64,000 nt of DNA from a candidate division WS6 bacterium OLB20 (GTDB lineage: Bacteria > Patescibacteriota > Dojkabacteria > B142 > OLB20), in assembly GCA_001567355.1 (NCBI GenBank), contig JYNZ01000003.1, positions 402,263-466,262 on the forward strand, read 5' to 3'. Below the pieces are notes generated by a model. The model had not been told where the DNA came from, ran no database searches, and saw nothing but the letters and a program-made list of their open reading frames with translations. The translations under genes were made by a program, and so were the position numbers. Below, one piece after another: positions 4,183-41,449 of the stretch (positions are counted from its first letter, which is position 1; every line of letters starts with the position of its first letter).

Positions 4183-4614
4183 TCAACCGCCCAAAATCAA
4201 CTTCTGCCACCAGAACACGTTATCCCGCAATATGATCGGATCGTTGTTATCACGGACAAATTCTATCGGCAGTTCGTTGTCACGCTGGACTACATAGAGT
4301 TTTTCTCCAGGCTCAGCCAGATTCCAGCTTTCTCGGGCATACGAGCGCCGGTACTCAACAGATTCGTAGTATTTGACAAGCTCTTCCAGCTCAGATTGCT
4401 CCTCCTCCAATTTTGTGAGGCGGGCTTCTTCTTCTTCAATCCTCGTCAGATTGTCCCGCCCTTTATTAAACGCTGTGTAAATGTTGATGCTGAGCGCGAC
4501 AATTATTACCACCATGACCAGACGCGACACAATATCTCCGTATGTCAGTTCGACAGTTGTAAACCTACGCCGGATGTAGGCGGACACCCGTTTCAGAAGT
4601 TTTGTGATACGCAT
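4183..4614 (-). CDS. Septum-formation initiator FtsB/DivIC-like protein: N-terminal TM followed by a coiled coil.
   Basis: 143 aa. TM VMVVIIVALSINIYTAF is followed by a charged heptad-rich segment RIEEEEARLTKLEEEQSELEELVKYYES. Size and topology fit the FtsB/DivIC family. This is a fold-level call only. Confidence 0.4.
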   Translation of the reverse strand: MRITKLLKRVSAYIRRRFTTVELTYGDIVSRLVMVVIIVALSINIYTAFNKGRDNLTRIEEEEARLTKLEEEQSELEELVKYYESVEYRRSYARESWNLAEPGEKLYVVQRDNELPIEFVRDNNDPIILRDNVFWWQKLILGG

Positions 4615-4722: not shown

Positions 4723-5604
4723 ATGGCTCTGCACAGACACCGCGAAGAGTTTGTTCAGCACCTTGAAGGCAAGGGACGTTCAAAGTCGACGATAGTGGCA
4801 TACAACAAGGATATTGAACAACTTATCAGCTTTCTTGATGAGCTGCAGCACTCCGGTCTTCCGCAGGACCTTACTACCGGCATACTCGAAGCATATGTCG
4901 ACAAGCTGAAGCAGGAGGGTAACTACACACTCAAAACTGTCTCACGCAAAATCAACAGTCTCAAAACATTCTCAAAATATCTTGCCAATCAGGGTCTTAT
5001 AGTATCAGATGTTGCTGCGCCTATCTCGCACCCGGAGTTTACACCACAACTACCGCGCGTTCTTTCACCCCTGGAGTATCGTGCACTGCGCGACACAGCC
5101 CGGTCAAATGTGCGGCTGTACACTATGGTAGAGCTCCTGTTACAGACAGGGATCCGCATCGGCGAGCTCTCAAGACTTAAGCGGGCACATGTAAAGCTGG
5201 ATAACCCTCACATTTATATAGAGCCGTTCTCCAGCAACCCCGAACGAGTCGTTGATCTAAACGAGCGAGCAGTCGAGTCAATCGCACAGTACTTTGAAGA
5301 GCACCAGCATATCAGGGATGCCGAAAACGATCAGCTCCATATGTTTCAGACCAAGACAGGCAACCCCGTTCTTATCCGGAACATCAGGACGGCAATTAAC
5401 CGTGCCTTCAGGAAAGCAGGAATCAAAGGTGCAACAGTCAACGATATCCGTAACACCTTTATCGTCTATCAGCTTGAAAGCGGTATAGACCTTGAGCGCC
5501 TTGCGCAGATCGTAGGTCATCAGAAGCCGACCACCACAGAAAAATACCTCGAGTTGGTCGAGTCACGCCCGGATAAAACCTCCCACAAAATAGAACCGCT
5601 GTAA
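4723..5604 (+). CDS. Site-specific tyrosine recombinase, XerC/XerD-like.
   Basis: N-terminal SAM-like core-binding domain. Catalytic region TGIRIGELSRLKRAHV (box I Arg) and C-terminal GHQKPTTTEKYLE (HxxR...Y nucleophile region). 293 aa. Confidence 0.85.
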   Translation: MALHRHREEFVQHLEGKGRSKSTIVAYNKDIEQLISFLDELQHSGLPQDLTTGILEAYVDKLKQEGNYTLKTVSRKINSLKTFSKYLANQGLIVSDVAAPISHPEFTPQLPRVLSPLEYRALRDTARSNVRLYTMVELLLQTGIRIGELSRLKRAHVKLDNPHIYIEPFSSNPERVVDLNERAVESIAQYFEEHQHIRDAENDQLHMFQTKTGNPVLIRNIRTAINRAFRKAGIKGATVNDIRNTFIVYQLESGIDLERLAQIVGHQKPTTTEKYLELVESRPDKTSHKIEPL

Positions 5605-5810: not shown

Positions 5811-7979
5811 TCAGATAATCAGCTGCAGCAGCATTTCACCTGTACCCGCCAGAATCAGACCAATCAGCACTGCTGTGAGGATCATGAATGTATCTTCGCG
5901 TAGCAGCGATGCGACAAGGTAGCTCCTGTGCTGCGGTCTGCCCACAAGAGGATGCTGATGGTCAGGCTGAACTGCATGATCGTGAATCACAAACGGTGGA
6001 ATAACTGCGGTAAAGTGGTAGCGCCAGAGCGCGAACCAGATCAGAGCAGACAGACTGATCCCGAGGAGGAATGCATATACCAGGCGAACCGTATAACCTG
6101 TCGTATACACACGTGCGTCAGTATCCGCATCAGGGTAACCGGGTATCAGCGTCTCCGCCTTGTTGCGGTCAAAGCGGACCTCGATCTCATCGATTCCGGC
6201 CTGGGCATTCAGACTACCTTCGATAAATGCACGGACATAAAGCGTTCCGCCATCACTGGATAATGTGCTGATACTTCCGGCAACTTCATCAGGGGTGGAA
6301 ACATTGCGATCATTAAGCGCAGGCTGCCACTGTCCATCTTTGACGTAATACCAGATTGAACCGTCACTGCTGAGCTGAAGTGTCATCTGCCCCTTTGCAC
6401 TGAAGCTGTCAAGTTTTTCAAACGGAACACCGAAACGGGTTGTGACTACAGGCCTGTCAGCTGCAAAATGATCCGGACTGATGATTACCTCACTCACTGA
6501 AGCAGAGAGCCCCGCATCGCGTGTGACAAATTTGAGTCTGTACTGAAAGTATCTGCCGCTAAGATCAAGTTGCGGCAGACTGTACCGGCCGGATTCGACA
6601 TGACGGGGACGGTACCACGTGTCGGGGCCGGCGGGTCCACGAAAGGCTCTGTCACTGCAGAGTGTATCATCACATGTCCTTACCTGGACAAAGACATCAT
6701 GTGCGCCACGCCTGAAGATATCGTTCACTTCAATCAGTTGCAGTACGTCATTGAACACAGTAAATTCATCCAGATCGCCTTTAAACGTCTGCACGGGATC
6801 AAACCATCCGCCCAGCTCCTGCTGACGTTCGCCAAGGACAAGAGATCCGTTCTGGCCAAGGATTACACCCTGCTGCAGAAAACCTGAGTATGCAGGAAAC
6901 CCGTCACGGTAAACCTCAATCTTACCGGTATGTGAGTCCCAGGAAACAGCAAGATGATGCCACTGACCGTCATTGAATGCGACACCGGTGCGCAGCTTTT
7001 TACCGCTGATGATCAGCATCAGATCTGACGCGTCATACAGCACAATATCGCTGGTGTCGCTTTCTGAGGCATAGGACATGATTGTCTGAGAGGAGGAAGA
7101 CGTTTTGACCCAGAAAGCGATGGTAAACCTGTCAAGTGCAAGATTTTTATAAGGAAAGATTTTCAGGTAGTCGTTATTGCCGTCAAACTCCGCCCTGTTG
7201 CCTACTACGCCTCCGGGCTTTGCCACAACACCGACCCCTTTGGCAGTATTACCTGTTCCTGAGCTGTCGGCGAAGTACTGATCGGTACCGTCATTTTCGG
7301 GCTCGTCAAAATACAGAAGTGTCGTATTGTACTTCATAGATACCGCTCCTTCATCAAATCCGGCATCTGATCCCTGTTCTGCAGGCAGCCGGATACCAAC
7401 AGGTCTGTTGAGTTTCAGACCAAGGGACTCCCAGCGGGCGCCTGCCGCAGATGCATCCATAAGCCGGGATACAAACGTTCCCTCACCAGCAAGCATACCA
7501 TCGGTGGTTAAGGTGAGGACACCTTCTGCACCTTTATAATCAGTGCCGGTATGGCTGCCGCGGTCAAAATCCTCTGCTCCATCATCAGTATGGATAATCG
7601 GCCGGGTCAGTGCGCGGCCGGACGCGACAATGACACGTTCGTCATCAAATACGTAATTCTCTGCAATCGTAAAGTCCCACAGCTGCCTTGTAACCGGTCT
7701 CGCCTGCAGGCTGAACAGAACATACAGGCTCATAATCGAAAGCAGAAAAGCAAAGCAAACGAACAGTACCATGGCAAGCCGCAAAAGTCTGAACGTTGGG
7801 TGGCCGCTTCGACTGATAATATACGTGTGCTCCCGCCAGACTTGCGATCCTAACCTGCCCTGGCGCCAGTGCCAGCGCAGAAACGTACGGAAGGCATTGC
7901 GCAGACCGCCCTGGGTCAGACTTTCATACAACACTCTCTCGCCGGGTCTGATTGTGTGTTTAAAGCGGGACAGTTTCAT
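5811..7979 (-). CDS. Large membrane-anchored surface protein with a concanavalin-A-like/LamG domain.
   Basis: 722 aa. Basic cytoplasmic N-terminus, TM at ~aa 67-90, extracellular region containing a LamG-like block, and C-terminal hydrophobic segments. Confidence 0.55.
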   Translation of the reverse strand: MKLSRFKHTIRPGERVLYESLTQGGLRNAFRTFLRWHWRQGRLGSQVWREHTYIISRSGHPTFRLLRLAMVLFVCFAFLLSIMSLYVLFSLQARPVTRQLWDFTIAENYVFDDERVIVASGRALTRPIIHTDDGAEDFDRGSHTGTDYKGAEGVLTLTTDGMLAGEGTFVSRLMDASAAGARWESLGLKLNRPVGIRLPAEQGSDAGFDEGAVSMKYNTTLLYFDEPENDGTDQYFADSSGTGNTAKGVGVVAKPGGVVGNRAEFDGNNDYLKIFPYKNLALDRFTIAFWVKTSSSSQTIMSYASESDTSDIVLYDASDLMLIISGKKLRTGVAFNDGQWHHLAVSWDSHTGKIEVYRDGFPAYSGFLQQGVILGQNGSLVLGERQQELGGWFDPVQTFKGDLDEFTVFNDVLQLIEVNDIFRRGAHDVFVQVRTCDDTLCSDRAFRGPAGPDTWYRPRHVESGRYSLPQLDLSGRYFQYRLKFVTRDAGLSASVSEVIISPDHFAADRPVVTTRFGVPFEKLDSFSAKGQMTLQLSSDGSIWYYVKDGQWQPALNDRNVSTPDEVAGSISTLSSDGGTLYVRAFIEGSLNAQAGIDEIEVRFDRNKAETLIPGYPDADTDARVYTTGYTVRLVYAFLLGISLSALIWFALWRYHFTAVIPPFVIHDHAVQPDHQHPLVGRPQHRSYLVASLLREDTFMILTAVLIGLILAGTGEMLLQLII

Positions 7980-7984
7980 AGCTG

Positions 7985-8965
7985 CTATTTATGCTCACGC
8001 CGGTAACGTTCGCGCGCATACTCGTAGTATGCTGATGTTCCGCCGGGAACATGATGTTCGAGTACGTGTTCAAACAGCTGCTTCCAGTGCTTGCGCTGCA
8101 CCCGCAACGCGATAAAATACGGTGCCAGCGTAACAAACGCTTCCCTGTCTTTTTCTACACGGAAATAGTCCGCTGTCTTGAGAAACATTCTATAGCCCAG
8201 AACCTTTGTCCGCAGCGGTACTGTTTTGTCTGAAATCTCATGAAAGCTGTGCGCAAACGATGCTGCAATTGCACACATAAACAGAATATAAAGCGCAACC
8301 ACCGCTGTGCCCGCTGCAATCCAGAACATCTGGACACCTCCGCCTGCAGTCTGATCCAGGATGTAATAGACCAGCAGCCAGCCAAGCCAGATATATCCGA
8401 GCATCAGTGTGCCGACATTTGCCGCGATAAACTGAACAAAACCCGGATTATACGAGATGTATCCTTTTCGCTGCAGATCACCATACACAGCGGTGCTCAG
8501 GTACGCAGAATCATGCGAGAAAAGAGCTTTGTAGTCAACGTTGTAGATCAGGCTGTGCAGGTTTGAAGGATTGTCGACATATGTGCGGATTATCTTCTGT
8601 TCCAGCTCATCAGCAGCAGAAACCTCTCCGGTATGGAGAATGTAATACAGTGCTGTTGCCAGTACATCAACATCGTCAAACTCACCGTCAACCATATACC
8701 CCAGTTCGTAGAACCGCAGGTCTGCAGGCGGACGGTACGTCGGAATCGTAATCTGCTTTATCCGGATTGCCTGTTCAGATCTGCGCTTGAAGGCTGATGC
8801 GGATTTAAGAAACAGACTGAACAGAACAGCGGACAGGACGATCAGACCTGTAATCAGCGCAAGCTGCGCTGCCCCGTTAAAATCAGGATCTGCGAAGTAC
8901 ACAAAAACTAGCAGAAACGGGACACTTATCAGAGCAAGCGACCATAGTGCGACTGGTTTGTTCAT
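7985..8965 (-). CDS. Polytopic membrane protein, DUF2207-like; function unknown.
   Basis: 326 aa. N-terminal TM pair, central soluble region, then 3 C-terminal TM helices. It lies immediately downstream of the conjugative-type ATPase with only a 19-nt gap, so it is probably co-transcribed. Confidence 0.5.
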   Translation of the reverse strand: MNKPVALWSLALISVPFLLVFVYFADPDFNGAAQLALITGLIVLSAVLFSLFLKSASAFKRRSEQAIRIKQITIPTYRPPADLRFYELGYMVDGEFDDVDVLATALYYILHTGEVSAADELEQKIIRTYVDNPSNLHSLIYNVDYKALFSHDSAYLSTAVYGDLQRKGYISYNPGFVQFIAANVGTLMLGYIWLGWLLVYYILDQTAGGGVQMFWIAAGTAVVALYILFMCAIAASFAHSFHEISDKTVPLRTKVLGYRMFLKTADYFRVEKDREAFVTLAPYFIALRVQRKHWKQLFEHVLEHHVPGGTSAYYEYARERYRREHK

Positions 8966-8983
8966 GACTTGGACAGTGTAGTA

Positions 8984-11551
8984 TTAACCGGCACCCTTCG
9001 GTTTGAGCGGAGCATTAAATCCTCCGCCGCCGAACCCTCCTGCCATGCCGCCGGGAACAGGTGCTCCGCCTCCCTGATCTGCAGCTTCCTTTGCCTTGCT
9101 GCCGCTCAGGTCTGAGCGTTCGTTCATCTCTGCTTCAACAAGCCCGCGGTCGCGACCGTAGCGAAGACGTGACAGGTTTTTAACGATCTGGGCAACTTTC
9201 TTATTGCCGTGTTTCGGAAGTGCAAACGGTGCATTCCCGTAGTCCGTACTGATGGAGAATGCAGGCGGCGACTCTCCCTGAGCGATAATCTTCACGTAGG
9301 CATTTCTGTTCTCAAGGTTGGTGAGATCGGTCTGATCAAACATGGGAGTGAAAATGGTTTCAAGAAACTGTGCGTCAGACGTACCGACTTTCATACTGAC
9401 CACAGTACCAACGTTTCCAAACACGGCATCCCGGATCTTCTCATCAATCTGGGCAATGTACTGGTTGGCAACGACAAGGTTGAGACGGTATTTACGCGCT
9501 TCTGACAGGATCTGTGCAAAATCCTGGGTCGAAAAGTTCTGGAACTCGTCAACATACAGATAAAAGTCCTTACGAAGATCCTCCTGAGTATCAGCGCGGC
9601 TCATGGCAGACGACAGTATGCGTGGTACCAGAAGCAATCCCAGGAACTGTGCATTTTCTTCTCCGATCAGACCTTTCGACAGATTGACGATCAGAATCTT
9701 CTGATCATCCATAATCTTGCGCATGTTAAATCCTGATGCCGTCTGACCGAAGATGTTTCGGGTCAGTTTATTAGTGACAAAGCGGTCAAACTTCGAAACG
9801 ATGTATCCCAGAACCTCTGACTTGTGAAAGTCCTGCGTCTTTGCAATTTCGTCAGTCCAGTAACGCCTGACAAGGTCATCTTTAATTTCGGGGATAATGG
9901 TCTTGGCGTAATCCTCATCCGAAAGAATACGCAGCACTTCAACGAGAGTGCTGCCAGGCCGTTCCATAGCAGTAAGCATTGCATTTCGGACAGCACGTTC
10001 AAATCTGGGACCGGTAATACCCTGATTATGAGGGTCAAACATTTTCTGCATCAGACCTACAAACGAGTTTACTGTTCGATGCTTATCCTGCTCATTAAAG
10101 TACTCAATGATATTGAAACCTATCGGCCTGTCAGTGTCGCCCGGATCCCAGTAGATCACGTCTTCAATACGGTGAGGCGGAATGCGTTCAAGCAGCCACT
10201 CGGCAGAGTCACCGTGTGGATCAAGAAAAGCTATGCCCTCGCCGTTGATGATATCCTGATAGGCCATCTGCTGGATAAAGTACGATTTACCGGAGCCGGT
10301 CTTACCGATCACATACATATGACGGCGACGGTCATCGCGGTTGATATAAATATTCTTTTTAACATCACGGTAGACGTTAGTGCCAAGCCACAGGTCACCG
10401 CTGGACGGCACAGTGGATGAAGCAGCTGCACGTTTTGACAGCAGCCAGTTGATGTGCGGAGTATCGACAGTTCTATTGGGATAGTGCATTATCGTTGCCA
10501 GCTCTGCCGTATTCAGTACAAAGCTCTCACGCGGAACCCGGTAGATGAAATCCTTTACAAACTTAATCTTGTCCTTTGCATTGAGTGATACTTTCTTGAA
10601 GTGATTACTGCCCTCCTTGGTAAACTGCGAAAAGGAGCTGATCATACTTTCAAGGGTGATTTCTGCCTGCTGATCACTAGGTGCTACTGCAACCAGCCGT
10701 ATATCAACATTAAACCCGCCCTTTTCGCATTTTTTCTCAATCGCTCCCAGCAGGTCTTCGGCAACATCCATTTTCTTCTTCTCGGGATCTGAATTGTTGG
10801 TGCGTACCTTATCGACAAACTTTTTACCACCGTTACGCCATGATGATCCGGCACCGGTAATGACGACCTGCATCGCAGCCGCCTCACCCATGGTCAGTTT
10901 ACTCATAGTTGTCAGCAGCGATGACAGCGAATCGGTCGAGAGCTCTTCGTATGTACGAACCGGCTTATAGGTGTCGGAATCAAGCTTAAGCGTGCCGAAC
11001 TTGACCTTGCTGCCATCTGCAAAGATATTGTACTCCTGCGCAATAGCGACCTCTGCCGTAGGATATGCACCGTTTACCGCTTTTTCGACCGTATTTGCCA
11101 GATTTCTGCTGGCCACAATATAAAAACGGATATTCTCGGGCATACCTACAATCTCAAAGCTCACAAACGAACGTGCCTTGGTCAGTTTTTCGAAACCCTT
11201 GTAGGTCTCACTGATACCAAGCAACCCTGAGAACATCTGATCCGCGGCCTGGATCTCGACCTCATTATTGCGGGGAACGCGCACCTCAAAAACAACTGCA
11301 TCGAGCGATTTTTTCTCCATTGACGCTTCTCTCACTCCGCCAAAAAAGCGGCGGAAGAGTGAGCGAATGACCAGTATCACAATAATGAAAGAGATAACGA
11401 AGATCAGCAGACCGATCCAGAATCCCGGATTAAGCAGAAATCCGACCGGACTGTTTGACACTCCCGGCACCACAGCAGGAGTGGTCCGCAGTGTTGTCTG
11501 GGACAGAGGCAACGGAATCATGTTGTGCAACAATGCGGGCAAATATGCCAT
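8984..11551 (-). CDS. VirB4/VirD4-superfamily conjugative-type ATPase (TraG/TraD/TrbE-like; FtsK-HerA clade P-loop NTPase).
   Basis: 855 aa. One N-terminal TM. Walker A YVIGKTGSGKSY is followed 22 aa later by FLDPHGD, the DPxGD/E motif found after the P-loop in T4SS VirD4/VirB4 ATPases. Walker B-like LYVDEFQNF. Glycine-rich C-terminal tail GGGAPVPGGMAGGFGGGGF. Confidence 0.7.
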   Translation of the reverse strand: MAYLPALLHNMIPLPLSQTTLRTTPAVVPGVSNSPVGFLLNPGFWIGLLIFVISFIIVILVIRSLFRRFFGGVREASMEKKSLDAVVFEVRVPRNNEVEIQAADQMFSGLLGISETYKGFEKLTKARSFVSFEIVGMPENIRFYIVASRNLANTVEKAVNGAYPTAEVAIAQEYNIFADGSKVKFGTLKLDSDTYKPVRTYEELSTDSLSSLLTTMSKLTMGEAAAMQVVITGAGSSWRNGGKKFVDKVRTNNSDPEKKKMDVAEDLLGAIEKKCEKGGFNVDIRLVAVAPSDQQAEITLESMISSFSQFTKEGSNHFKKVSLNAKDKIKFVKDFIYRVPRESFVLNTAELATIMHYPNRTVDTPHINWLLSKRAAASSTVPSSGDLWLGTNVYRDVKKNIYINRDDRRRHMYVIGKTGSGKSYFIQQMAYQDIINGEGIAFLDPHGDSAEWLLERIPPHRIEDVIYWDPGDTDRPIGFNIIEYFNEQDKHRTVNSFVGLMQKMFDPHNQGITGPRFERAVRNAMLTAMERPGSTLVEVLRILSDEDYAKTIIPEIKDDLVRRYWTDEIAKTQDFHKSEVLGYIVSKFDRFVTNKLTRNIFGQTASGFNMRKIMDDQKILIVNLSKGLIGEENAQFLGLLLVPRILSSAMSRADTQEDLRKDFYLYVDEFQNFSTQDFAQILSEARKYRLNLVVANQYIAQIDEKIRDAVFGNVGTVVSMKVGTSDAQFLETIFTPMFDQTDLTNLENRNAYVKIIAQGESPPAFSISTDYGNAPFALPKHGNKKVAQIVKNLSRLRYGRDRGLVEAEMNERSDLSGSKAKEAADQGGGAPVPGGMAGGFGGGGFNAPLKPKGAG

Positions 11552-11605
11552 TATGCTAGTTCATCATACACCATTGAAAATATACCTTCAAAAGCGAATA
11601 ACGCG

Positions 11606-12142
11606 TTATGAGCTGCGCTGGCTTTGCTTTTTCAGGAGTCGATCGAGGAACATATAGACCCATGTACGCGCTTCTCCGGTATCGCCTCCTTTTTCCTTCT
11701 GCTCCGCAATCAGTTTAGGATTTGTTGCGATCTGCAGAGGGATTTTATATCCGTAAAACGATGGCGGTTCTGGCCCCTTTGGCTGTGCAGGTTTAGGCTG
11801 AGGCTTAGGTGCCTGCGGCTGCTGAGGAGGCTGTGGTCTTTGTTCCTGCTGCTCTGCTGCACGCTCCGGTTGCGGCTGCTGCTCAATACGTCTGATCGCC
11901 TCATTTCCATATTCAATTGAACGTTCGGGGGCTGCATTTGGAGATGACTCAATCCGGACAGGTCCTGTCTCGGGCGAACCGCCAGCAAAACCACCCTGCT
12001 GCACTGGTTGCTGTGCCAGCTGGTTGGGAAGCGGCTGTCCTGAGACCGGGTCAAAGTACTGTCCGGTCTGGGGATCATACTGCGGCGGAAATACCGGCAG
12101 TCCTGTGTTGGGATCAATTGGGGGTTGCTGCTGTCCTGCCAT
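11606..12142 (-). CDS. Pro/Gln-rich low-complexity hypothetical protein.
   Basis: 178 aa, with PQ repeats QPQPERAAEQQEQRPQPPQQPQAPKPQPKPAQPKGPEPP. Positioned between smpB and the T4SS-type ATPase, co-directional. Its stop overlaps the smpB start. Confidence 0.4.
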   Translation of the reverse strand: MAGQQQPPIDPNTGLPVFPPQYDPQTGQYFDPVSGQPLPNQLAQQPVQQGGFAGGSPETGPVRIESSPNAAPERSIEYGNEAIRRIEQQPQPERAAEQQEQRPQPPQQPQAPKPQPKPAQPKGPEPPSFYGYKIPLQIATNPKLIAEQKEKGGDTGEARTWVYMFLDRLLKKQSQRSS

Positions 12143-33694: not shown

Positions 33695-34375
33695 TTATTC
33701 TGCTACAGTGTTAACCACCTTCTCAACACATGCTGATGTTCTACAGTCGCATCGTATTGTATAACACTGAGGTTGGCCGGGATCAGGGCGCGTTGCAGGA
33801 CAAACCTGATATTCCTCGATATCGTCCGACGCTCCTGGATTGGAGCAGTTATTAGTACAGACAAATCGATCGTTCTCATTGCACGCGAGTACCTGCCCTA
33901 CATAGGAACCACCTGTACAGACCTGCGGGAAGAAGAACGTAAATCCGGGATCACGAAGGTTTTCATAGCAGCTTGCATCCTCGGCAATCAGCCCTTGCAT
34001 CAATGTTGCTGATATCGGGTATGCAAGAAAGTACAGGAGCAGACCGATAACCCACTGCCCTGCACGCTTTTTAGCGATCTCAACCTTGCTCTGGTCGCCG
34101 GCACTTGTCAGGTAGATTCCACCGATTACAACCAGCAGCACCATAAAGACAATGCCTCCAAACGCCCAGGCGGCATATATTACCCGGGTGACAAGATACT
34201 GCAGTTCACGGATTGTGGGTGGTTCGCAGGGTTCACTGCTCTCGAGGGAGCACGGCTCAGAGACCTGAGCCGATGCCGGCTCTGCTGAGATGAACAACGG
34301 CAGCACAACAACTATCAGTACAAGCAGTACCGGGTATGCACGCTTAATAAGTGTTGCAAACCGTTGCACAGTCAT
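33695..34375 (-). CDS. Pilin-like protein 1: signal peptide, two-helix hydrophobic hairpin (TrbC/VirB2-like topology), Cys-rich C-terminal ectodomain (12 Cys).
   Basis: Signal peptide ends ASAQ. Hairpin VIYAAWAFGGIVFMVLLVVIGGIYL - TSAGDQSKVEIAKKRAG - QWVIGLLLYFLAYPISA. The Cys-rich tail follows. Confidence 0.55.
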   Translation of the reverse strand: MTVQRFATLIKRAYPVLLVLIVVVLPLFISAEPASAQVSEPCSLESSEPCEPPTIRELQYLVTRVIYAAWAFGGIVFMVLLVVIGGIYLTSAGDQSKVEIAKKRAGQWVIGLLLYFLAYPISATLMQGLIAEDASCYENLRDPGFTFFFPQVCTGGSYVGQVLACNENDRFVCTNNCSNPGASDDIEEYQVCPATRPDPGQPQCYTIRCDCRTSACVEKVVNTVAE

Positions 34376-34935
34376 CAGTTTGTGATAGGATCGATGCAGT
34401 CCGGTTCTGTGATGTCATCCGGATCAGTTGCAGCCTGGTACAGCGCCTCACATGAATTACACAGAGCCTGACTGTCATCCACTTCACCGGTGCACGATCT
34501 GCAGCCCTCACTGTTAGGCGCGGACAGACATACCTGGTAAAGTGCCGGATCCGGTCTGTTGGCTCCAAAGAAGACAAAGACAAGAACAATACCGACAATT
34601 GCAATAAGCATCGCACCAATACCAAAAAAGATCGCCTGGATGGCTTTTTGCGCCTCCTCTATCTTACCGGCATCTCCCTGAGACTGGATATACTTAATAG
34701 CAGCCATGATCGCATATACCACAGCGATCAGGACAACTGCTCCAAGAGCAAGCACAAGTCCAAGCTGAATACGGCTGGTAACAAAACCCGAAGCACCGAT
34801 ACCTTCTTCTCCAAGCAGACCAAAGATGTCGCCTATCTGATCAGGCAGAAGACTCTGCGCCTGAACTGGCAGTATCATAGCTGCTCCAAGCAGAATCGAC
34901 AGAGATAAAAACGCTCCCGTTATGTACTTTTTCAT
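34375..34935 (-). CDS. Pilin-like protein 2 (copy A of the tandem triplication).
   Basis: Signal peptide (..VQAQ). Core QLGLVLALGAVVLIAVVYAIMAAIKYIQSQGDAGKIEEAQKAIQAIFFGIGAMLIAIVGIVLVFVFF is identical to copies B and C. Distinct Cys-containing C-terminal tail. Confidence 0.6.
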   Translation of the reverse strand: MKKYITGAFLSLSILLGAAMILPVQAQSLLPDQIGDIFGLLGEEGIGASGFVTSRIQLGLVLALGAVVLIAVVYAIMAAIKYIQSQGDAGKIEEAQKAIQAIFFGIGAMLIAIVGIVLVFVFFGANRPDPALYQVCLSAPNSEGCRSCTGEVDDSQALCNSCEALYQAATDPDDITEPDCIDPITN

Positions 34936-34953
34936 GCGAGATAAAAATAATTA

Positions 34954-35559
34954 TTAATTTTCTGCACAGATGCCACCGGCATAGTTGCGCAACGCTGTTG
35001 TAAGCTGAGAATATGACCAGTTGTCCTGCACCTGTGTCTCAAAAAACTCCTCACACTGACCGCAGGCTGTATTTGTTCGTGCTCCGCGGGTACCTGGATC
35101 TTCTCCTGCAAGGCACGACTCACAGCCTTCACTGTCCGGGGACGTCAGGCACACCTGGTAAAGTGCCGGATCCGGTCTGTTGGCTCCAAAGAAGACAAAG
35201 ACAAGAACAATACCGACAATTGCAATAAGCATCGCACCAATACCAAAAAAGATCGCCTGGATGGCTTTTTGCGCCTCCTCTATCTTACCGGCATCTCCCT
35301 GAGACTGGATATACTTAATAGCAGCCATGATCGCATATACCACAGCGATCAGGACGACCGCCCCAAGAGCAAGGACAAGTCCAAGCTGGATACGGCTGGT
35401 AACAAAACCTGCCGAGCCCGAACCGCCGGGTCCAAGCAGGTTGAAGATATCAGCTATCTGACCGGGCAGCAAGCTCTGAGCCTGAACGGTAGTTACACCT
35501 GTCAGCAGGAGCAGCATTGTGGTGGACAGAAGCAGAAGTTGTTTCGTCCGTCTGATCAT
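34954..35559 (-). CDS. Pilin-like protein 3 (copy B).
   Basis: Same hairpin core. About 200 bp are DNA-identical to copy A (34535-34733 vs 35155-35353). The tail differs (...CESCLAGEDPGTRGARTNTACGQCEEFF...). Confidence 0.6.
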   Translation of the reverse strand: MIRRTKQLLLLSTTMLLLLTGVTTVQAQSLLPGQIADIFNLLGPGGSGSAGFVTSRIQLGLVLALGAVVLIAVVYAIMAAIKYIQSQGDAGKIEEAQKAIQAIFFGIGAMLIAIVGIVLVFVFFGANRPDPALYQVCLTSPDSEGCESCLAGEDPGTRGARTNTACGQCEEFFETQVQDNWSYSQLTTALRNYAGGICAEN

Positions 35560-35564
35560 CGTGT

Positions 35565-36170
35565 TTAAGGCTCGTCACACTCATCTGGAATAGTCGTCCC
35601 GCTTGCCTCTGAGTCACAGTTGCTGCCGTTTCTGGCAAGACAGTCGTATGCAGCCTCACACTGACCGCACAATGTATTGGAATATGTTCCATCCGCATCT
35701 GTTGCAGCATCATTATTTAGACATGATTCACAGCCGGCGCTGTTAGGCGCGGACAGACATACCTGGTATAGAGCTGGATCAGGTCTGTTGGCTCCAAAGA
35801 AGACAAAGACAAGAACAATACCGACAATTGCGATAAGCATCGCACCAATACCAAAAAAGATCGCCTGGATGGCTTTTTGCGCCTCCTCAATCTTACCGGC
35901 ATCACCCTGGGACTGGATATATTTAATGGCAGCCATGATCGCATATACAACAGCGATCAGGACAACTGCTCCAAGAGCAAGCACAAGTCCGAGCTGAACA
36001 CGGCTGGTGACAAAGTTTGCAGACCCGGAACCTTCCGGTCCGAGCAGATTGAAGATGTCTCCTATCTGATCAGGCAGAAGACTTTGTGCAGATACTGCTG
36101 CAGGCATTGTCACAAACAGCACCAGAAAGAAGCTGAGTGCGCTGAAAACAAGAAACGATCGTTTGTTCAT
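35565..36170 (-). CDS. Pilin-like protein 4 (copy C).
   Basis: Same core with a few synonymous or near-synonymous changes. Different tail (...CESCLNNDAATDADGTYSNTLCGQCEAAYDCLARNGSNCDSEASG...). Confidence 0.6.
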   Translation of the reverse strand: MNKRSFLVFSALSFFLVLFVTMPAAVSAQSLLPDQIGDIFNLLGPEGSGSANFVTSRVQLGLVLALGAVVLIAVVYAIMAAIKYIQSQGDAGKIEEAQKAIQAIFFGIGAMLIAIVGIVLVFVFFGANRPDPALYQVCLSAPNSAGCESCLNNDAATDADGTYSNTLCGQCEAAYDCLARNGSNCDSEASGTTIPDECDEP

Positions 36171-36234
36171 GGCGTATGTAAAAAATGTTTAAACTCAGTC
36201 TAGTCTATTTGGCAGCTAATGTTAAGGTTTGCGC

Positions 36235-36789
36235 TTAAAGAAAAGTGTAGCTTAGGTTTTCGCAGCGGTCCTCAAATCTGAAAAACTCATTGAGCGGAAC
36301 ATCACTGACATCCAGATGGTCCCACTCCTGATCAGAACCCAGTCCGCCAGTTCTGCAGCACGCTATGGCATACTCTCTGCGCTCATCATCTGCGATCTCA
36401 GGTTGCATCTCCAGCTCAATGTAACGGAACTTGAACTCCGAATCAGCCCCTCCGCACTGTGCAAGATTGCTGCTCCATGAATAGATATCCCCCACTCCGG
36501 TAAACACTCCAATCAGCGACAGTACAATCAGAAACCCGAGAAACATGGCGATCCCGATCCAGATATTCTTGATCACTGTCATTCCACCCTGGATACCGTC
36601 CGGATTACCGGCGCTGGTGATAATTTTGATTCCTGCGTAGATGCTGAAGACAACCCAGACAACAAGCATCACCGAAAACAGAAGCGAGATAAACAGAGCG
36701 ATCACTGACAGGACGCCTCCGTTAAGCAGCCCCCCGACATTAGGGAGAAATAACGAGATACCGCCAATATCAACCTGACCAGTCAGCAT
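36235..36789 (-). CDS. Pilin-like protein 5. Hairpin core diverged. C-terminal Cys-containing acidic domain.
   Basis: 184 aa. Hairpin LSVIALFISLLFSVMLVVWVVFSIYAGIKIITSAGNPDGIQGGMTVIKNIWIGIAMFLGFLIVLSLIGVF. No clear cleavable signal peptide. Confidence 0.5.
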   Translation of the reverse strand: MLTGQVDIGGISLFLPNVGGLLNGGVLSVIALFISLLFSVMLVVWVVFSIYAGIKIITSAGNPDGIQGGMTVIKNIWIGIAMFLGFLIVLSLIGVFTGVGDIYSWSSNLAQCGGADSEFKFRYIELEMQPEIADDERREYAIACCRTGGLGSDQEWDHLDVSDVPLNEFFRFEDRCENLSYTFL

Positions 36790-36805
36790 AGTCGTTTTTT
36801 AAAAG

Positions 36806-37525
36806 TTAATCCCTGTATGGCTCCCAGCTGCCACCGCGGCAGATGTAATTACGAACCCCATCTACAGACGGGTCAGCATCGACATAACCGAATGATCCGT
36901 CGCCGCATGCCTCAGTCAGCTCTGCAGAAGTCAGTTCGAGCGGTACAAGATTAAAGTCAAACAGGTTCTGTGCCACGCCGAGCAGCATGGCGATTATCTG
37001 GATGATGAGTATCCCCATGGTTGAAACAACAACACCGATGATCGCGTTCTGGAATATTTTTGCAGATTCCTCCACCTTGTCCGGACTCTCACCCGCGGTT
37101 GTCCGCACCACCATACCGTATATCCCCATCACGATTGCGGCAACCGATATCACACCCATGACTGCGTAGAGGAACATCCTTATCAGACTCGGTATCGCAC
37201 GCTCAGGCGGACCGAAGTTGATACCGGCAAAATTGACATTGTCTTCAACCTCCGCAATTGCCTGCTCAACCTCTTTGCACTTGGAAGGATCTTCTTTTTC
37301 ACACCCCTCACCTGCCTCGATACATTTATACTGACACAGCAGACTGCACTCAGCCTGAGGATCAGTAAAGAGAAGCGCGGAACAGTTAGGATCGACAACC
37401 AGATCAGTGGGCTCGTTTGCGCTGTTGACATCAGTCGGCCTGTCAATAATTGTGCAGCCCACAGCAAACAGCAGCAGTGCTGCAGCAATACCAATTAGTT
37501 TGAAGTTAACCTTCATATCAGCCAC
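36806..37525 (-). CDS. Pilin-like lipoprotein 6: Cys-rich N-terminal domain, hairpin, then a C-terminal domain.
   Basis: Lipobox LLLFAVGC. Cys-rich block CSALLFTDPQAECSLLCQYKCIEAGEGCEKEDPSKC. Hairpin MFLYAVMGVISVAAIVMGIYGMVV...ESAKIFQNAIIGVVVSTMGILIIQIIAML. Confidence 0.5.
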   Translation of the reverse strand: MADMKVNFKLIGIAAALLLFAVGCTIIDRPTDVNSANEPTDLVVDPNCSALLFTDPQAECSLLCQYKCIEAGEGCEKEDPSKCKEVEQAIAEVEDNVNFAGINFGPPERAIPSLIRMFLYAVMGVISVAAIVMGIYGMVVRTTAGESPDKVEESAKIFQNAIIGVVVSTMGILIIQIIAMLLGVAQNLFDFNLVPLELTSAELTEACGDGSFGYVDADPSVDGVRNYICRGGSWEPYRD

Positions 37526-37898
37526 CGATCAGCTGCACACCAAACAGTGCGGAAATAATACCGACAACAACAGGTGCAACAAGAATGATAATAAATCCGA
37601 TTACGGCGAACGTGAGGATCTTTTTTGCCTGCGCCACTTTTTCGTCAGACCCGGCGGCAGTAAGGTATGTAAAACCGCCGTAGATAATCATTGCCAGAAA
37701 CGCAAGTGTCGCCACGGGTATGATAAATGCGCTCAGTGTCGAGAAAATTGACCCGATATCGCTGAACAGCGAGTTTAGCGGGTTCTGAATCGTATTCGGT
37801 CCGTCTGTAGCAGGTGTCGGAGAGGCCGCATTAACAGCACTTACACCAGCAGCAGCAAACAGTAAGATAGCGGCAAGAATGTTTGTGAGTACTTTCAT
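37518..37898 (-). CDS. Pilin-like protein 7 (minimal form). Start taken at MKVLTNIL; the ORF is open to 38024.
   Basis: Signal peptide MKVLTNILAAILLFAAAGVSAVNAA. Hairpin FIIPVATLAFLAMIIYGGFTYLTAAGSDEKVAQAKKILTFAVIGFIIILVAPVVVGII. No ectodomain. Confidence 0.5.
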   Translation of the reverse strand: MKVLTNILAAILLFAAAGVSAVNAASPTPATDGPNTIQNPLNSLFSDIGSIFSTLSAFIIPVATLAFLAMIIYGGFTYLTAAGSDEKVAQAKKILTFAVIGFIIILVAPVVVGIISALFGVQLIGG

Positions 37899-37941
37899 AC
37901 TACCTAGAGTAGCAGACAGAAACGGTGGCAGCAATACTCTG

Positions 37942-39135
37942 CTATTGCAGGAAGTCCAACGGCAGAATGCCGAGAACATTAATACCCAGAAACCGCAGGA
38001 TGACAACAGCGCCAAGTAGTACAATCAGGGCAATAATTGCTGAACTGACAATCTCTTTTGCCTCACGGATCTGCTCGGGATTATCAGTTTGCATCATAAT
38101 GGCTGCCTGGATAAAGCGCAGGATCATGACACCGCCGATTATACCGATACCGATTTGAAACAGCCTGGTTACTATCCCGTTGAGTGATACATCCCAGCAG
38201 CCAAGAGCGTTCCACACAAAGAAACCCTCATCCGCCTCATCGAGATTGCGGGCCACACAGGCGCGACACTGTGTACGCTCCTCCGCATTTTCTTCCGGAA
38301 TATTATCACACCCTTTACTCAACTCACCGGCATCAGGATCTATCGGAGCCGACGCATCTACCAGATTGCCATCTACGCATCTTCTCGTTGCATCGTTCGG
38401 GTCAAGCTCATTGTTGTTGATACAGTAGGCTCCGTTTGCCTCACACGCTGATTCTGATTCAAACGTCTCGGCGGGGTTCATGCGGTCACCATTGAGTACT
38501 CGGCAGTTTCCTCCGCCACCGCACCACCAGAGGGTTTCTGTTTCAATTAAATGGTTTGACCCTTCAAGCCCCCAGATGCTGCTGAGGTCACGATCCTGCT
38601 CTGCGGGTACTGAACTGTTATCTGGACGATAACACTTTCCATCACTATCACTGACGATGCTGTCGTTCGGATCCGGACAGCACAAAAGATCATACGTCAG
38701 GTGAATACCCTGGGGCTGAAGAATGAGATTCGGATGAGACTCGGGACAACACCTGGCTGCACCTCCATACGCCAGGAGCCCGGATGGACTCTTGTCAGCT
38801 ACATATCCATCAAAACATACGTTAAATACCCAGCCGCCCGCATGACTCCAGACCGAATTTACTTCTGTGATATTGCTCAATGCGCAGTGTCTGTTGCCTT
38901 CCACAATGATATTCCGTTCTTCAGAGGAGTTTAAATCATCTGCAAAAAGGTTATTCTCAAGAAAATAATCACCCAGAGGACCAAGCGTTGATGACGGACA
39001 CATGTTCTCGTCACTCACACAACCTGCAGCCAGCGCCTGTGATGATGTAAGGACTGCGACAACGAACACGACTGAAGATACGATAAGGAGCTTCAACGCA
39101 ATCCCTTGAAGGGAGAGTTTATGACCTGACAACAT
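37942..39135 (-). CDS. Pilin-like protein 8: large Cys-rich extracellular domain (~300 aa, ~30 Cys) fused to a C-terminal hairpin module.
   Basis: Signal peptide ..SSQALAAG. Many CxxC/CC pairs. C-terminal LFQIGIGIIGGVMILRFIQAAIMMQTDNPEQIREAKEIVSSAIIALIVLLGAVVILRFL. The ORF is open to 39171, overlapping the 3' end of the Clp-like gene. Confidence 0.55.
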   Translation of the reverse strand: MLSGHKLSLQGIALKLLIVSSVVFVVAVLTSSQALAAGCVSDENMCPSSTLGPLGDYFLENNLFADDLNSSEERNIIVEGNRHCALSNITEVNSVWSHAGGWVFNVCFDGYVADKSPSGLLAYGGAARCCPESHPNLILQPQGIHLTYDLLCCPDPNDSIVSDSDGKCYRPDNSSVPAEQDRDLSSIWGLEGSNHLIETETLWWCGGGGNCRVLNGDRMNPAETFESESACEANGAYCINNNELDPNDATRRCVDGNLVDASAPIDPDAGELSKGCDNIPEENAEERTQCRACVARNLDEADEGFFVWNALGCWDVSLNGIVTRLFQIGIGIIGGVMILRFIQAAIMMQTDNPEQIREAKEIVSSAIIALIVLLGAVVILRFLGINVLGILPLDFLQ

Positions 39136-41449
39136 CAATTTTCTCCAGCGAAGTAATATGCAGTCTGTCACCGTAATCCAGATTGCCGGCGACGATCAGT
39201 TTAGCGATCTTGTTTTCGACCTCGTCCTGAATCACACGTCGAAGTTCGCGAGCGCCGTAGACCGGGTTGTAACCTTTTCGGGCAAGTTCTTCGAGCAGCT
39301 GCGGCGTGTAGGTCAGAGTTATACCTTTCTCTTCCAGTGTTTTAGCCTGCTTCTGCATCATTATCTCAGCGACTTTTTGCACCTCAAGCGGTACAAGCGG
39401 TCTGAATAGAATCACTTTATCAAATCTGTTGAGGAATTCAACGCGCAGGTACTTTGCCAGGATCGGCTGCACCTGTTTTCTGATCTGCTCGTATGGTGTT
39501 CCCCTGGTGGTCAGTTCTGATATCTCGCGGGTACCAACGTTTGAGGTGGCAATAATTATGGTATTGGTAAAATCAACCTTTCTGCCCAGGCCGTCGGTCA
39601 TGCTTCCCTCGTCCAGCACCTGCAGAAACAGGTCCAGTACGCGGGGATTAGCCTTCTCGATCTCGTCAAGCAGCAGGAGCGAGTACGGACGGTTGCGCAC
39701 AGCCTCGGTCAGATAGCCTCCTTCAAACCGGCCGTCGACAGACTTGCCGATCAGGCGGTCAAGATTTGTCTCCTCCTGATACTCAGACATATCGAGCCGG
39801 ATCATCAGTTTTTCGTCTCCGTAGTAAACCGCGGTCAGTGCCTTTGAAAGCTCTGTTTTACCGACACCGGTAGGACCAAAAAACAGAAACGTGGCGATCG
39901 GACGCTTGCCGCTGACAAGTCCAGCCCTGGATCTGCGCATTGCATCAGCAACAGCCTGGACTGCCTCTGTCTGACCGATCAGCCGCTGGTGCAGTTTTTC
40001 CTCCAGATTAACAAGCAGCTCGGACTCGCGGCTGTCGATCGCACCAACTTTGACACCCACCTTGGCAGAGATCACCTCTTCAATCAGCTGCTCGTTAGCA
40101 AACTCAAGTCCTCTACTGCGAGCACTGACCATAACCTCTTCGAGCAGATCGATTCCTTTGTCGGGCAGCACTTTTTCAAAGGCAAACGTATGCGAGAGTT
40201 TTACCAGCCGCACAAGCGCATCAAAACTGACACGAACACCGTAGCGCAGCTCCATCGCGGGCAGCACATCCATCAGAATCTGAACTGCTACAGGGTCTGA
40301 TGGCTCTTTAACCTCAACCAGTTTAAATGATGATGCCAGACCACGTTCTGTCTTGATCTTCTGGTTGTAGCCTTCGGGAGTTGAGACGGCAATCACGCGC
40401 AGATGATAACGGTCCATTGCGCTGACGATAAGATTGACGACTTCGGATGCGATCTCTCTGCGGATGTTAAGCACCTGGTCAAAATCATCAAGGACCAGAA
40501 TGATATTGCCTGCCGACGCTGTCTCCTCAAGTACATTCTGTACACGGGACTTGAACACCTCAACGGTCGGCGCCAGTGAAAACGCCCGGTTAAAATCAAA
40601 TGCCACAAGACGCTTGTCACGAAGTATCGGTGGAACGTCCTCTACCACCATGCGTGTCGCGAGACTGTTCACAAGCGTTGTACGGCCGACTCCGGGCTGA
40701 CCCACTAGCAGTACAGCGCTGGCATCACCCTCCTCAAGATAACTGATCACCTGGTTCAGCTCACCCTCGCGTGCAATCGAGTATGTAAAGTCACCCTTAA
40801 CTGTTTCGGCAGTGAAATCGCGCTGAAACTGAACGAGCACCGGTGAGTATCGTGATGTAAACGCCCTGTTGACTGTAGAAACGGGCTTCAGTGCACGTTT
40901 GGCGTAGAACTCGTCCTTATAGCGTCTGATATCACTTTTATTTTTAAGCCACATACCAAGCGCCTCAACCTCATCCGGCAGAACATTTACACTCTTAAGC
41001 TCCTGCGCAAGGGGCTTCTGCATCAGAAAGAGGAAAAACGCCATCTCATCCACACTGTTAAGGCGCAGATCGTATGACAGCTGAAACGTACTGATCAGCA
41101 CCTGAACAAGCCATGAGTCGATGTGAGTATCGCTTGCCAGGTTGTGCTTTGCCGCCAGTTCAAGCAGCGACCGCTTTTCGAGGCCAAGACGGGCAGCCGC
41201 TTTCTGCACATTGGCATAGCGCAGCACCTCGTGTATCAGCAGTGTCAGAAAGTCCTGCTCACCTGTCCCGGCCAGATCATCAAGAACATTAAGCAGATCA
41301 TGATCTATATACTCCGTTATTTCGATCTCTTCGGGAAGATTACCCTGATTGATCTGTTCTCTAAGTCCCGAAAGCTTTTTCAGTCGCAGAGTATCGACAA
41401 ACAGTGCACGGTTGCGTCTGAGAAACATTGCATACAGATACAGCAGCAC
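39119..41449 (-). CDS. ClpC/ClpB-family Hsp100 AAA+ ATPase with two nucleotide-binding domains and a non-canonical ~230-aa N-terminal region.
   Basis: D1 LLVGQPGVGRTTLVNSLA with IILVLDDFD. D2 FLFFGPTGVGKTELSKAL, LLLLDEIEKANPRVLDLFLQVLDEGSMTD, sensor-2 GARELRRVI. The N-terminus lacks recognisable Clp_N repeats. The annotated start is GTG, immediately after the C6 run at 41451-41456. Confidence 0.85.
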   Translation of the reverse strand: MLLYLYAMFLRRNRALFVDTLRLKKLSGLREQINQGNLPEEIEITEYIDHDLLNVLDDLAGTGEQDFLTLLIHEVLRYANVQKAAARLGLEKRSLLELAAKHNLASDTHIDSWLVQVLISTFQLSYDLRLNSVDEMAFFLFLMQKPLAQELKSVNVLPDEVEALGMWLKNKSDIRRYKDEFYAKRALKPVSTVNRAFTSRYSPVLVQFQRDFTAETVKGDFTYSIAREGELNQVISYLEEGDASAVLLVGQPGVGRTTLVNSLATRMVVEDVPPILRDKRLVAFDFNRAFSLAPTVEVFKSRVQNVLEETASAGNIILVLDDFDQVLNIRREIASEVVNLIVSAMDRYHLRVIAVSTPEGYNQKIKTERGLASSFKLVEVKEPSDPVAVQILMDVLPAMELRYGVRVSFDALVRLVKLSHTFAFEKVLPDKGIDLLEEVMVSARSRGLEFANEQLIEEVISAKVGVKVGAIDSRESELLVNLEEKLHQRLIGQTEAVQAVADAMRRSRAGLVSGKRPIATFLFFGPTGVGKTELSKALTAVYYGDEKLMIRLDMSEYQEETNLDRLIGKSVDGRFEGGYLTEAVRNRPYSLLLLDEIEKANPRVLDLFLQVLDEGSMTDGLGRKVDFTNTIIIATSNVGTREISELTTRGTPYEQIRKQVQPILAKYLRVEFLNRFDKVILFRPLVPLEVQKVAEIMMQKQAKTLEEKGITLTYTPQLLEELARKGYNPVYGARELRRVIQDEVENKIAKLIVAGNLDYGDRLHITSLEKIDVVRS

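Follow-up and report, generated by a model that had tools for sequence, protein, structure and literature searches.

Our analysis of positions 7985–12142 of a 64 kb window (the whole stretch of DNA analysed, on contig JYNZ01000003.1 of candidate division WS6 bacterium OLB20) revealed a gene pair composed of a small, disordered protein and a membrane-anchored P-loop ATPase with intact invariant motifs, the putative ortholog pair of which is scored essential in Southlakia epibionticum. By the names of its homologs, the window belongs to Candidatus Dojkabacteria (WS6), within the Patescibacteria, or candidate phyla radiation (CPR). An earlier annotation made from the sequence alone, hereafter the original prediction, had described this region as a stand-alone ATPase operon of the conjugative VirB4/VirD4 type. 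The region consists of three co-directional, minus-strand open reading frames (ORFs) of 178, 855 and 326 aa:

11606..12142, minus strand: small partner protein, 178 aa (ORF)
8984..11551, minus strand: P-loop ATPase, 855 aa, membrane-anchored, of the DUF8128 plus type IV coupling protein (T4CP)-like family (Pfam, AlphaFold)
7985..8965, minus strand: polytopic membrane protein, 326 aa (sub-threshold DUF2207_C)

The 855-aa ATPase carries a Walker A motif (GKTGSGKS, residues 416–423), DPHGD at residues 444–448 and a Walker B motif beginning at residue 667 (VDEFQ; D668–E669). Walker A, Walker B and many other ATPase residues are invariant across 46 homologs. The ORF coordinates, the Walker A and DPxGD motifs, the Gly-rich tail and the PQ-rich upstream protein had all been called in the original prediction and were confirmed. 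A full-length AlphaFold model of the ATPase (pLDDT 83.5) and the supporting searches divide the protein as follows:

11354..11428, minus strand: N-terminal transmembrane (TM) helix, residues ~42–66 (from the sequence; model helix 42–83)
10436..11302, minus strand: DUF8128 domain, residues ~84–372 (domain model and Foldseek)
9107..10399, minus strand: T4CP-type nucleotide-binding domain, residues ~385–815 (Foldseek matches to TrwB and Cagbeta, PDB sequence search)
8987..9106, minus strand: Gly-rich disordered C-terminal tail, residues 816–855 (pLDDT < 50; 35 % Gly in the last 40 residues)

A basic stretch (RSLFRRFF..K) directly follows the TM helix, and by the positive-inside rule the remainder of the protein would be cytoplasmic. 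As the best Foldseek E-values of the full-length model went to TrwK/VirB4 of R388 (4.7e-17), residues 76–372 were modelled separately (pLDDT 87.2, pTM 0.87). The top 14 PDB matches of this domain model were TrwK/VirB4 of R388 (E 1.3e-8 to 5.6e-5, probability 1.0, query-normalized TM-score (TMq) 0.46–0.51), and the subsequent matches were unrelated folds with E > 4e-4. The DUF8128 domain is predicted to have a fold like that of the VirB4 N-terminal domain, the comparison being with the single VirB4 family that has a full-length structure. The nucleotide-binding domain superposed on TrwB (1e9s/1gl7) over ~418–440 columns for a chain of ~420 residues (target-normalized TM-score (TMt) 0.61–0.67) and also matched Cagbeta (8dol). 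Within it, the model places an all-helical insertion at residues ~487–615, with eight helices between core strands, and the C-terminal end is modelled as two helices followed by the disordered tail. The modelled architecture is one TM helix, a VirB4-N-like DUF8128 domain, a TrwB/VirD4-type motor with a helical insert, and a disordered tail.

Sequence profiles were also consulted for the family assignment. The Pfam models T4SS-DNA_transf (26.6 bits against a cut-off of 20.1, residues 400–705) and TraG-D_C (25.1 bits against 22) both passed, the best matches of a profile of the 46 homologs among PDB sequences were TrwB and DotL, and PF10412 (TrwB_AAD_bind) is present in many homologs. The Pfam VirB4 models failed, with AAA_10 reaching 16.5 bits against a cut-off of 27.5 and CagE_TrbE_VirB4 giving no match, and the NCBIfam models VirB4_plasma, TraC-F-type and Bac_Flav_CT_G matched the P-loop only, far under their cut-offs. 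NCBIfam matches were all sub-threshold, TraD and VirD4-like being the best, and no T4CP cut-off was reached. The combined VirB4/VirD4 label of the original prediction is therefore divided along the chain, as the motor passes VirD4-type profiles, whereas the N-terminal half is VirB4-like by fold. DUF8128 itself (PF26449) was assigned to the window ATPase indirectly via homologs, being precomputed in all 120 listed homologs (54–81 % identity, 72–100 % query coverage) and in all 120 Saccharibacterial relatives among the matches listed; the local Pfam search gave no PF26449 match.

That the protein is a housekeeping helicase or translocase of the HerA or FtsK/SpoIIIE type, misread as an ATPase of a type IV secretion system (T4SS), is hardly credible. 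Pfam DUF87, the HerA central domain, does pass its threshold over a 48-residue P-loop stretch (26.4 bits against 23.2), there are weak matches to FtsK_SpoIIIE (17 bits against 24, P-loop only) and HerA_Thermprot (17.8 bits against 800), and the fold search lists HerA–NurA at rank 48. However, all of these matches are confined to the Walker A region, and VirB4 and TrwB rank several E-value orders higher and cover both domains. Neither a HAS-barrel nor a NurA-like neighbour was found, and the Pfam models for the FtsK alpha, gamma and 4TM regions gave no match to the ATPase. The profile search thus gave no confident HerA/FtsK assignment, and the placement of the ATPase on the VirB4/VirD4 branch was upheld. 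The NCBIfam CedD/CedB matches were likewise restricted to the P-loop region (24.8 bits against a cut-off of 600).

The small upstream protein is a constant partner of the ATPase. In the window, Pro and Gln together make up 33 % of its residues and 41 % of the first 125, its N-terminal part is disordered and its C-terminus holds a conserved amphipathic helix (TWVYMFLDRLLKK). Relatives were compared by clustering the neighbouring ORFs of 85 related loci together with the window, and at least 62 of 78 loci had a small same-strand ORF immediately preceding the ATPase gene, with a median length of 145 aa and a median gap of 6 nt. A profile of the C-terminal ~50 residues detects the partner in 10 close loci. 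A helix of the type W-L-x-x-W/F-x-x-R-x-x-K recurs in Microgenomates small ORFs, the similarity of the Microgenomates and Saccharibacteria ORFs being a pattern recognized by eye and not a statistical match.

An exhaustive search for the ATPase family returned 21254 cluster representatives (50 % identity) at E<=1e-3 and 5300 at E<=1e-30. With each species represented by a single genome, a scan gave more than 598 loci, of which 80 were kept, among them loci from Dojkabacteria, many Microgenomates lineages, WWE3 and Saccharibacteria. ATPase identity to the window was 55–70 % in Dojkabacteria, 44–50 % in Microgenomates, 43–45 % in WWE3 and 37–40 % in Saccharibacteria. Records titled ‘Gammaproteobacteria’ or ‘Bathyarchaeia’ are probably mislabelled bins, because their neighbouring genes are of CPR type. 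At three distances the identity of the ATPase compared with that of SmpB was 81 against 68 %, 66 against 54 % and 47 against 38 %. The family follows taxonomy and is vertically inherited and chromosomal. Furthermore, the ATPase domain is 47–51 % identical to the C-termini of proteins of 900–1500 aa that have N-terminal tetratricopeptide (TPR) repeats and are without DUF8128 (P0196, P0217 and P0205). These TPR-repeat proteins present the same motor in a different architecture outside the CPR. One unclassified metagenome-assembled genome (L082, positions 1164–3527 and the ORF just upstream) encodes tandem DUF8128 ATPases of 819 and 858 aa, head to tail.

In S. epibionticum, the gene order is SEML1_0141, SEML1_0142, a reverse 193-aa gene, a reverse 535-aa DUF11 gene, gyrB and gyrA. 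The related locus L085 encodes a 146-aa ORF, a 1027-aa ATPase (37 % identity to the window, PF26449), a reverse 194-aa ORF, a reverse 578-aa DUF11 protein and GyrB, and on this gene-for-gene match over five genes we infer SEML1_0142 to be orthologous to the window ATPase. The published tables describe SEML1_0142 as a 1019-aa ‘TraM recognition domain-containing protein’ in a core, Patescibacteria-enriched family and score it ES/ES/ES, while SEML1_0141 (139 aa), directly upstream, is GD/ES/ES with no insertions recovered (PMC10633639). The main text of that paper does not mention SEML1_0142. The T4SS of S. epibionticum is itself essential and has no recognizable coupling protein, and most of its genes score GD/ES/ES; many housekeeping genes are also GD at T0 (PMC10633639). 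The same tables list SEML1_0293, a 921-aa T4CP-like protein with PF10412, as non-essential, and SEML1_0096, a canonical FtsK with alpha and gamma domains, as essential (PMC10633639). The ‘non-essential t4cp’ of PMC12102498 appears to be SEML1_0293 only. The two T4CP-like paralogs of S. epibionticum differ in their calls by transposon insertion sequencing, SEML1_0142 being essential and SEML1_0293 non-essential. The suggestion in the original prediction that the ATPase could be a domesticated remnant fits poorly with these results, as the gene is among the best conserved of its region and its putative Saccharibacterial ortholog is scored essential.

The original prediction had also noted an Xer-like recombinase and two tRNAs at a distance of 3–7 kb, which were found at the following positions, together with a DivIC-like gene and a further tRNA:

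4723..5604, plus strand: XerC/D-type tyrosine recombinase (Pfam Phage_integrase plus Phage_int_SAM_1)
5729–5801, plus strand: tRNA-Ile(TAT), left of the gene string
4047–4119, minus strand: tRNA-Met (CAT anticodon)
4183..4614, minus strand: DivIC/FtsB-like septum-formation protein (Pfam DivIC 26.5 bits, cut-off 28.9)
1785–1860, minus strand: second tRNA-Met (CAT anticodon)

With tRNA genes and a tyrosine recombinase so close, and with the stretch between ATPase and Xer variable among relatives, the ATPase could be taken for the coupling protein of an integrated conjugative element (ICE), or of its decayed remnant, bounded by tRNAs and with Xer as its integrase. We consider this very improbable. 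Relaxase, VirB4, VirB6/8/9/10/11 and integrase genes were absent both beside the three genes and from the annotated 64 kb window, which confirms and extends what had been predicted for the operon alone. The 3′ ends of tRNA-Ile and tRNA-Met each have a single occurrence in the window even when up to three mismatches are tolerated, GC content is uniform over 1–22 kb, and no clearly delimited ICE was found. ICE boundaries at these tRNAs were ruled out, their 3′ ends being unrepeated in the window. The order FtsH ... Xer ... ATPase–small–SmpB–NHL–...–SpoIID is kept in relatives with an ATPase 47–67 % identical, and ATPase identity tracks taxonomy. Of the 57 loci whose flank is long enough, 31 have Xer no more than 5 kb downstream of the ATPase (30 of them on the opposite strand), and a DivIC/FtsB-like family follows Xer in 25. 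Xer, with its DivIC-like companion gene, is accordingly a conserved neighbour on the chromosome rather than the integrase of an element, and the window ATPase is not on a mobile element. The divergent pair of Xer and DivIC/FtsB-like genes is kept across Dojkabacteria and Microgenomates. A tRNA-Ile with a TAT anticodon is uncommon among bacteria, and of the two CAT-anticodon tRNAs called Met, one may serve in initiation or be a lysidine-modified tRNA-Ile.

The three genes do not form a delimited operon. They sit within a co-directional string of ~12 genes running from 21031 to 5811, in the order SbcD, frameshifted SbcC, SpoIID, bPH_2, 78-aa, NHL, SmpB, small protein, ATPase, 326-aa and LamG protein, and the gaps around the ATPase are 54, 18 and 5 nt. 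Consensus scans for promoters and terminators over 5.6–21.5 kb showed no enrichment over shuffles. The three-gene operon of the original prediction is thus borne out as to shared direction and short gaps, but it is part of a longer string, and the 326-aa gene lies outside the conserved unit. The genes of the string on either side of the three are:

15895–17664, minus strand: SpoIID-domain protein (Pfam/NCBIfam)
15181–15837, minus strand: bPH_2 membrane protein (Pfam/NCBIfam)
14948–15184, minus strand: two-TM protein, 78 aa
12600–14951, minus strand: NHL-propeller membrane protein (Pfam/NCBIfam)
12142–12597, minus strand: SmpB (Pfam/NCBIfam)
5811..7979, minus strand: membrane-anchored LamG/pentaxin-fold surface protein, 722 aa (Pfam Laminin_G_3 and Pentaxin)

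Beyond the tRNA-Met, the leftmost genes are LiaF-like genes, the second tRNA-Met and FtsH, which crosses the window edge. The 326-aa protein had no tblastn homolog in any of the 85 related loci, and in the closest relative (ATPase 81 % identical) the LamG protein directly follows the ATPase with no 326-aa gene between them. For these reasons the 326-aa gene is regarded as accessory cargo, adjacent to the conserved module but outside it. Its description as DUF2207-like is weak, the match to DUF2207_C being below threshold (E 0.0044, 17.2 against 33 bits). The LamG protein was found only in the two closest loci. The stretch between ATPase and Xer (window 5811–8965) is a variable slot, occupied in L002 by unrelated proteins of 192 and 259 aa and in L003 by an SLH-domain protein.

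On the other side, a block of SpoIID, bPH, an ~80-aa gene, NHL and SmpB precedes the ATPase pair in the same order in Dojkabacteria loci. SpoIID and bPH lie downstream of the ATPase in four Microgenomates-type loci (L035, L049, L011 and L015), some of them titled Levybacteria, and the 78-aa and NHL genes follow in two. SmpB seems an odd passenger in the SpoIID block. Other neighbours of the ATPase are all housekeeping genes (class II ribonucleotide reductase, NrdR, TrpRS, PBP1A and NUDIX), genes of DNA metabolism recur nearby (SbcCD, RmuC, UvrD-like helicase, Xer and gyrase), and the Saccharibacterial pair adjoins gyrB/gyrA. In the window, SbcC is split between two minus-strand ORFs in different frames, with the N-terminal 433 aa at 18619–19920 and the C-terminal 255 aa at 17811–18578. 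SbcC is a single ORF of 689 aa in the relative L003. The split in the window reflects a frameshift, pseudogenization or misassembly.

Farther upstream, beyond the string, the window encodes a pilin array:

33695..39171, minus strand: seven VirB2-like T4SS pilin paralogs (T4SS_pilin PF18895, alignment)

PF18895 matched three of the seven at 24.8–25.9 bits (cut-off 26.6), and the alignment shows a common two-TM core with variable Cys-rich tails. Among the array, the three middle pilins (34375–36170) have near-identical two-TM cores and differing Cys-rich C-terminal tails, and the last (37942–39171, 409 aa) has a long Cys-rich N-terminal extension. Upstream of the array is a ClpB/ClpC-like AAA+ protein (39119–41449), and no VirB4 or VirB6 adjoins. 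Pilin arrays of 2–11 genes have already been described in Patescibacteria (PMC12102498). Pilins lie 6–10 kb upstream of the ATPase, on its strand, in every one of the seven distinct Dojkabacteria-type loci whose upstream flank spans the full 10 kb (L002, L003, L009, L010, L043, L055 and L057). The pilins directly adjoin the SpoIID gene in three of these loci, and the gene before the array in Dojkabacteria-type loci encodes a helicase-nuclease or MetRS, not VirB4. The link drawn in the original prediction to pilin-like proteins 22 kb away is therefore supported in that they are of VirB2 type and lie close to the ATPase in relatives, but it is limited to Dojkabacteria. The window pilins are displaced to 22 kb by SbcCD and an intervening 12 kb block, mainly on the plus strand (21410–33618). 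This block encodes a 709-aa protein without a family match, two GAF histidine kinases, a squalene-cyclase/prenyltransferase-like protein, a polyprenyl synthetase, a NUDIX protein and an HTH-GAF regulator. Relatives lack the block at this position, and GC is 0.42–0.45 at 28–34 kb compared with ~0.50 elsewhere; the block may be an acquired island.

Our tentative preference is to read the gene pair as the second motor, or coupling-protein equivalent, of the chromosomal, relaxase-less Patescibacterial T4SS with a VirB2-like pilus. This role is favoured because the nearest solved relatives of both domains are T4SS ATPases, because the family is CPR-enriched, as are the T4SS and its pilins, because the S. 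epibionticum T4SS is essential yet without an assigned T4CP, and because Dojkabacteria hold the ATPase and the pilin array in one string. Like its relatives, the ATPase would assemble into a hexameric ring at the cytoplasmic membrane face, where ATP hydrolysis could thread a polymer (protein or DNA) or drive pilin handling. Its VirB4-like DUF8128 domain might dock onto the inner-membrane platform of the T4SS, and the small partner may act as an adaptor, regulator or membrane tether. Several observations weigh against this role. To our knowledge, no T4CP carries a VirB4-like N-terminal domain. None of the 85 loci has virB4, virB3, virB6 or virB8 beside the ATPase, nor are relaxase or channel genes present within ±10 kb. 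An iterated profile detected no pilins near the ATPase outside Dojkabacteria loci, which is weak evidence as pilins diverge quickly, and within Dojkabacteria the interval between ATPase and pilins is broken by SmpB and DNA-repair genes. The ATPase domain is also ~48–50 % identical to the C-termini of the 1400–1500-aa TPR fusions; these include at least one cluster labelled Anaerolineae, which are not known to be epibionts. SEML1_0141/0142 are assigned as the ortholog pair on synteny, size and domain content, not direct alignment, and their essentiality fails to separate a T4SS role from another vital role. Finally, only 148 of 5713 Patescibacterial T4CP homologs lie near virB4, and of 3035 genomes, 2918 have T4CP homologs and 2417 VirB4 (PMC12102498). 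This excess hints at retention of T4CP homologs without a T4SS, although the count may include FtsK-like matches.

The main rival, which we judge somewhat unlikely, is a T4SS-independent core translocase, the gene pair having been co-opted for an essential membrane housekeeping task in DNA handling, division or envelope remodelling. Such a protein might, for example, move DNA or protein at the septum together with Xer, DivIC and a SpoIID-type wall enzyme. The convergent Xer (31/57 loci) and DivIC-like gene (25) recur across Dojkabacteria and many Microgenomates, the SpoIID–bPH–78 aa–NHL(–SmpB) block adjoins the ATPase even when its order is inverted, and the Saccharibacterial pair is next to gyrB/gyrA, while the ATPase is never beside virB4. 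Related ATPase domains in proteins labelled Anaerolineae point the same way, as does the ES/ES/ES score of SEML1_0142 from the first time point compared with GD/ES/ES for most T4SS genes, although many housekeeping genes score GD at T0 too. However, Xer is convergent and not co-transcribed with the ATPase, and signs of a recombination site were sought in vain. A relaxed canonical dif pattern beside Xer gave 14 scattered matches with no consistent position across loci, 12-mer enrichment in the Xer flanks of 39 loci yielded only a −10-like promoter motif and coding-sequence ends, and the window has no GC-skew switch near Xer. The ATPase has no gamma-like DNA-binding domain, and CPR enrichment fits a lifestyle-specific machine more easily than universal housekeeping. 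The canonical, essential FtsK SEML1_0096 exists, and TM7x also has an annotated ftsK; therefore FtsK is not being replaced. Replacement of FtsK was ruled out by the canonical essential FtsK with a gamma domain in S. epibionticum. A tblastn search with FtsK/SpoIIIE motor segments found no match in 1.46 Mb of fetched loci, which is uninformative as these loci sample this neighbourhood only.

T4CPs such as TrwB and VirD4 are by ancestry DNA-dependent ATPases, and the ATPase could on that ground be a DNA import or export pump for uptake or nucleotide scavenging, comparable to archaeal VirB4/HerA-like import motors or T4SS-based competence. CPR bacteria are unable to synthesize nucleotides de novo (PMC10633639), DNA-metabolism genes recur nearby, and CedD/CedB match the P-loop weakly. 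We nevertheless hold this to be improbable, as the Ced matches are far below their cut-offs and neither a DNA-binding accessory protein nor a relaxase lies nearby. In addition, competence in S. epibionticum needs ComEC and type IV pili, and comEC loss is not lethal, as summarized in PMC12857230. DNA uptake is by this account dispensable and SEML1_0142 is essential, which counts against a DNA pump.

The bare observation is not new, as the stand-alone ATPase without other T4SS core genes, which was predicted correctly and is borne out in the window and the 85 loci, has precedents. Stand-alone VirD4-like genes far from virB4 were already reported in Patescibacteria (PMC12102498), the N-terminal domain is catalogued as a Pfam DUF, and relaxase-less chromosomal T4SSs, VirB2 arrays and stand-alone VirD4-like genes are all published (PMC12102498; PMC10633639; PMC12857230). 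We found no paper in the searchable literature that mentions DUF8128 and no published function for any member. Likewise not found there were a VirB4-like DUF8128 fold on a T4CP-type motor, an obligatory small partner, synteny with Xer/DivIC, the SpoIID block and pilin arrays, or SEML1_0141/0142 as family members.

A large part of bacterial diversity belongs to the Patescibacteria, whose T4SS, the first found to be essential to its own carrier, has no assigned coupling protein. The only T4CP homolog discussed so far, by our reading SEML1_0293, is dispensable, and the DUF8128 pair is much better conserved. SEML1_0141/0142 therefore offer a testable candidate, in a genetically tractable CPR organism, be it for the motor that the T4SS lacks or for an essential translocase of unknown kind. 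A bolder proposal, which we put forward as doubtful, is that the small protein and the DUF8128 ATPase constitute an unrecognized, CPR-wide, essential hybrid machine, in which a docking domain of VirB4 type is joined to the engine of a coupling protein, and which would be a third lineage beside VirB4 and T4CP with an obligatory partner of its own. It would take one of two forms: the power and coupling unit of the essential, relaxase-less Patescibacterial T4SS or pilus for epibiotic life, or a T4SS-independent translocase for the chromosome or septum. The DUF8128 hybrid may also bear on the divergence of VirB4 and coupling proteins.

Compared with known systems, the window ATPase resembles the T4CPs (TrwB of R388, VirD4, TraD, DotL and Cagbeta) in its helical-insert motor, which superposes on TrwB (TMt ~0.65, ~425 columns), in its N-terminal membrane anchor and disordered C-terminal tail, and in a small partner encoded alongside, as for TraD–TraM, Cagbeta–CagZ and DotL–DotM/N. 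However, the T4CP anchor is two helices followed by the ATPase, whereas here one TM helix is followed by a VirB4-like domain of ~290 residues, and the window gene is chromosomal, vertically inherited, very strongly conserved and without relaxase or mating-pair linkage. With VirB4 (TrwK of R388 and the Patescibacterial clade of PMC12102498) it shares a size of ~800 residues and an N-terminal domain joined to a RecA-like C-terminal ATPase; its N-terminal fold matches TrwK specifically, and the TM helix recalls VirB3–VirB4 fusions. It differs from VirB4 in that the VirB4 sequence models fail, its ATPase half is nearer to T4CPs, and it is never beside VirB3/TrsD/VirB6/VirB8 and not near dnaA/dnaN, whereas Patescibacterial virB4 in its published context is usually found with dnaA, dnaN and rnpA. 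A canonical VirB4 seems to be encoded separately in Dojkabacteria genomes. FtsK/SpoIIIE with XerCD shares the superfamily, a membrane anchor and the recurrent Xer and DivIC-like neighbours, and its Pro/Gln-rich disordered segment has a counterpart here on the partner protein, but the window ATPase has no alpha, gamma or 4TM domain and its Pfam FtsK match is below threshold. Other DUF8128 proteins share both the architecture and the small upstream ORF. Within this family, Saccharibacterial members are ~1000 aa, with a Pro/Ala/Gln-rich tail of ~200 residues and other flanking genes, whereas the window protein is of the Dojkabacteria type, at 855 aa with a 40-residue Gly-rich tail.

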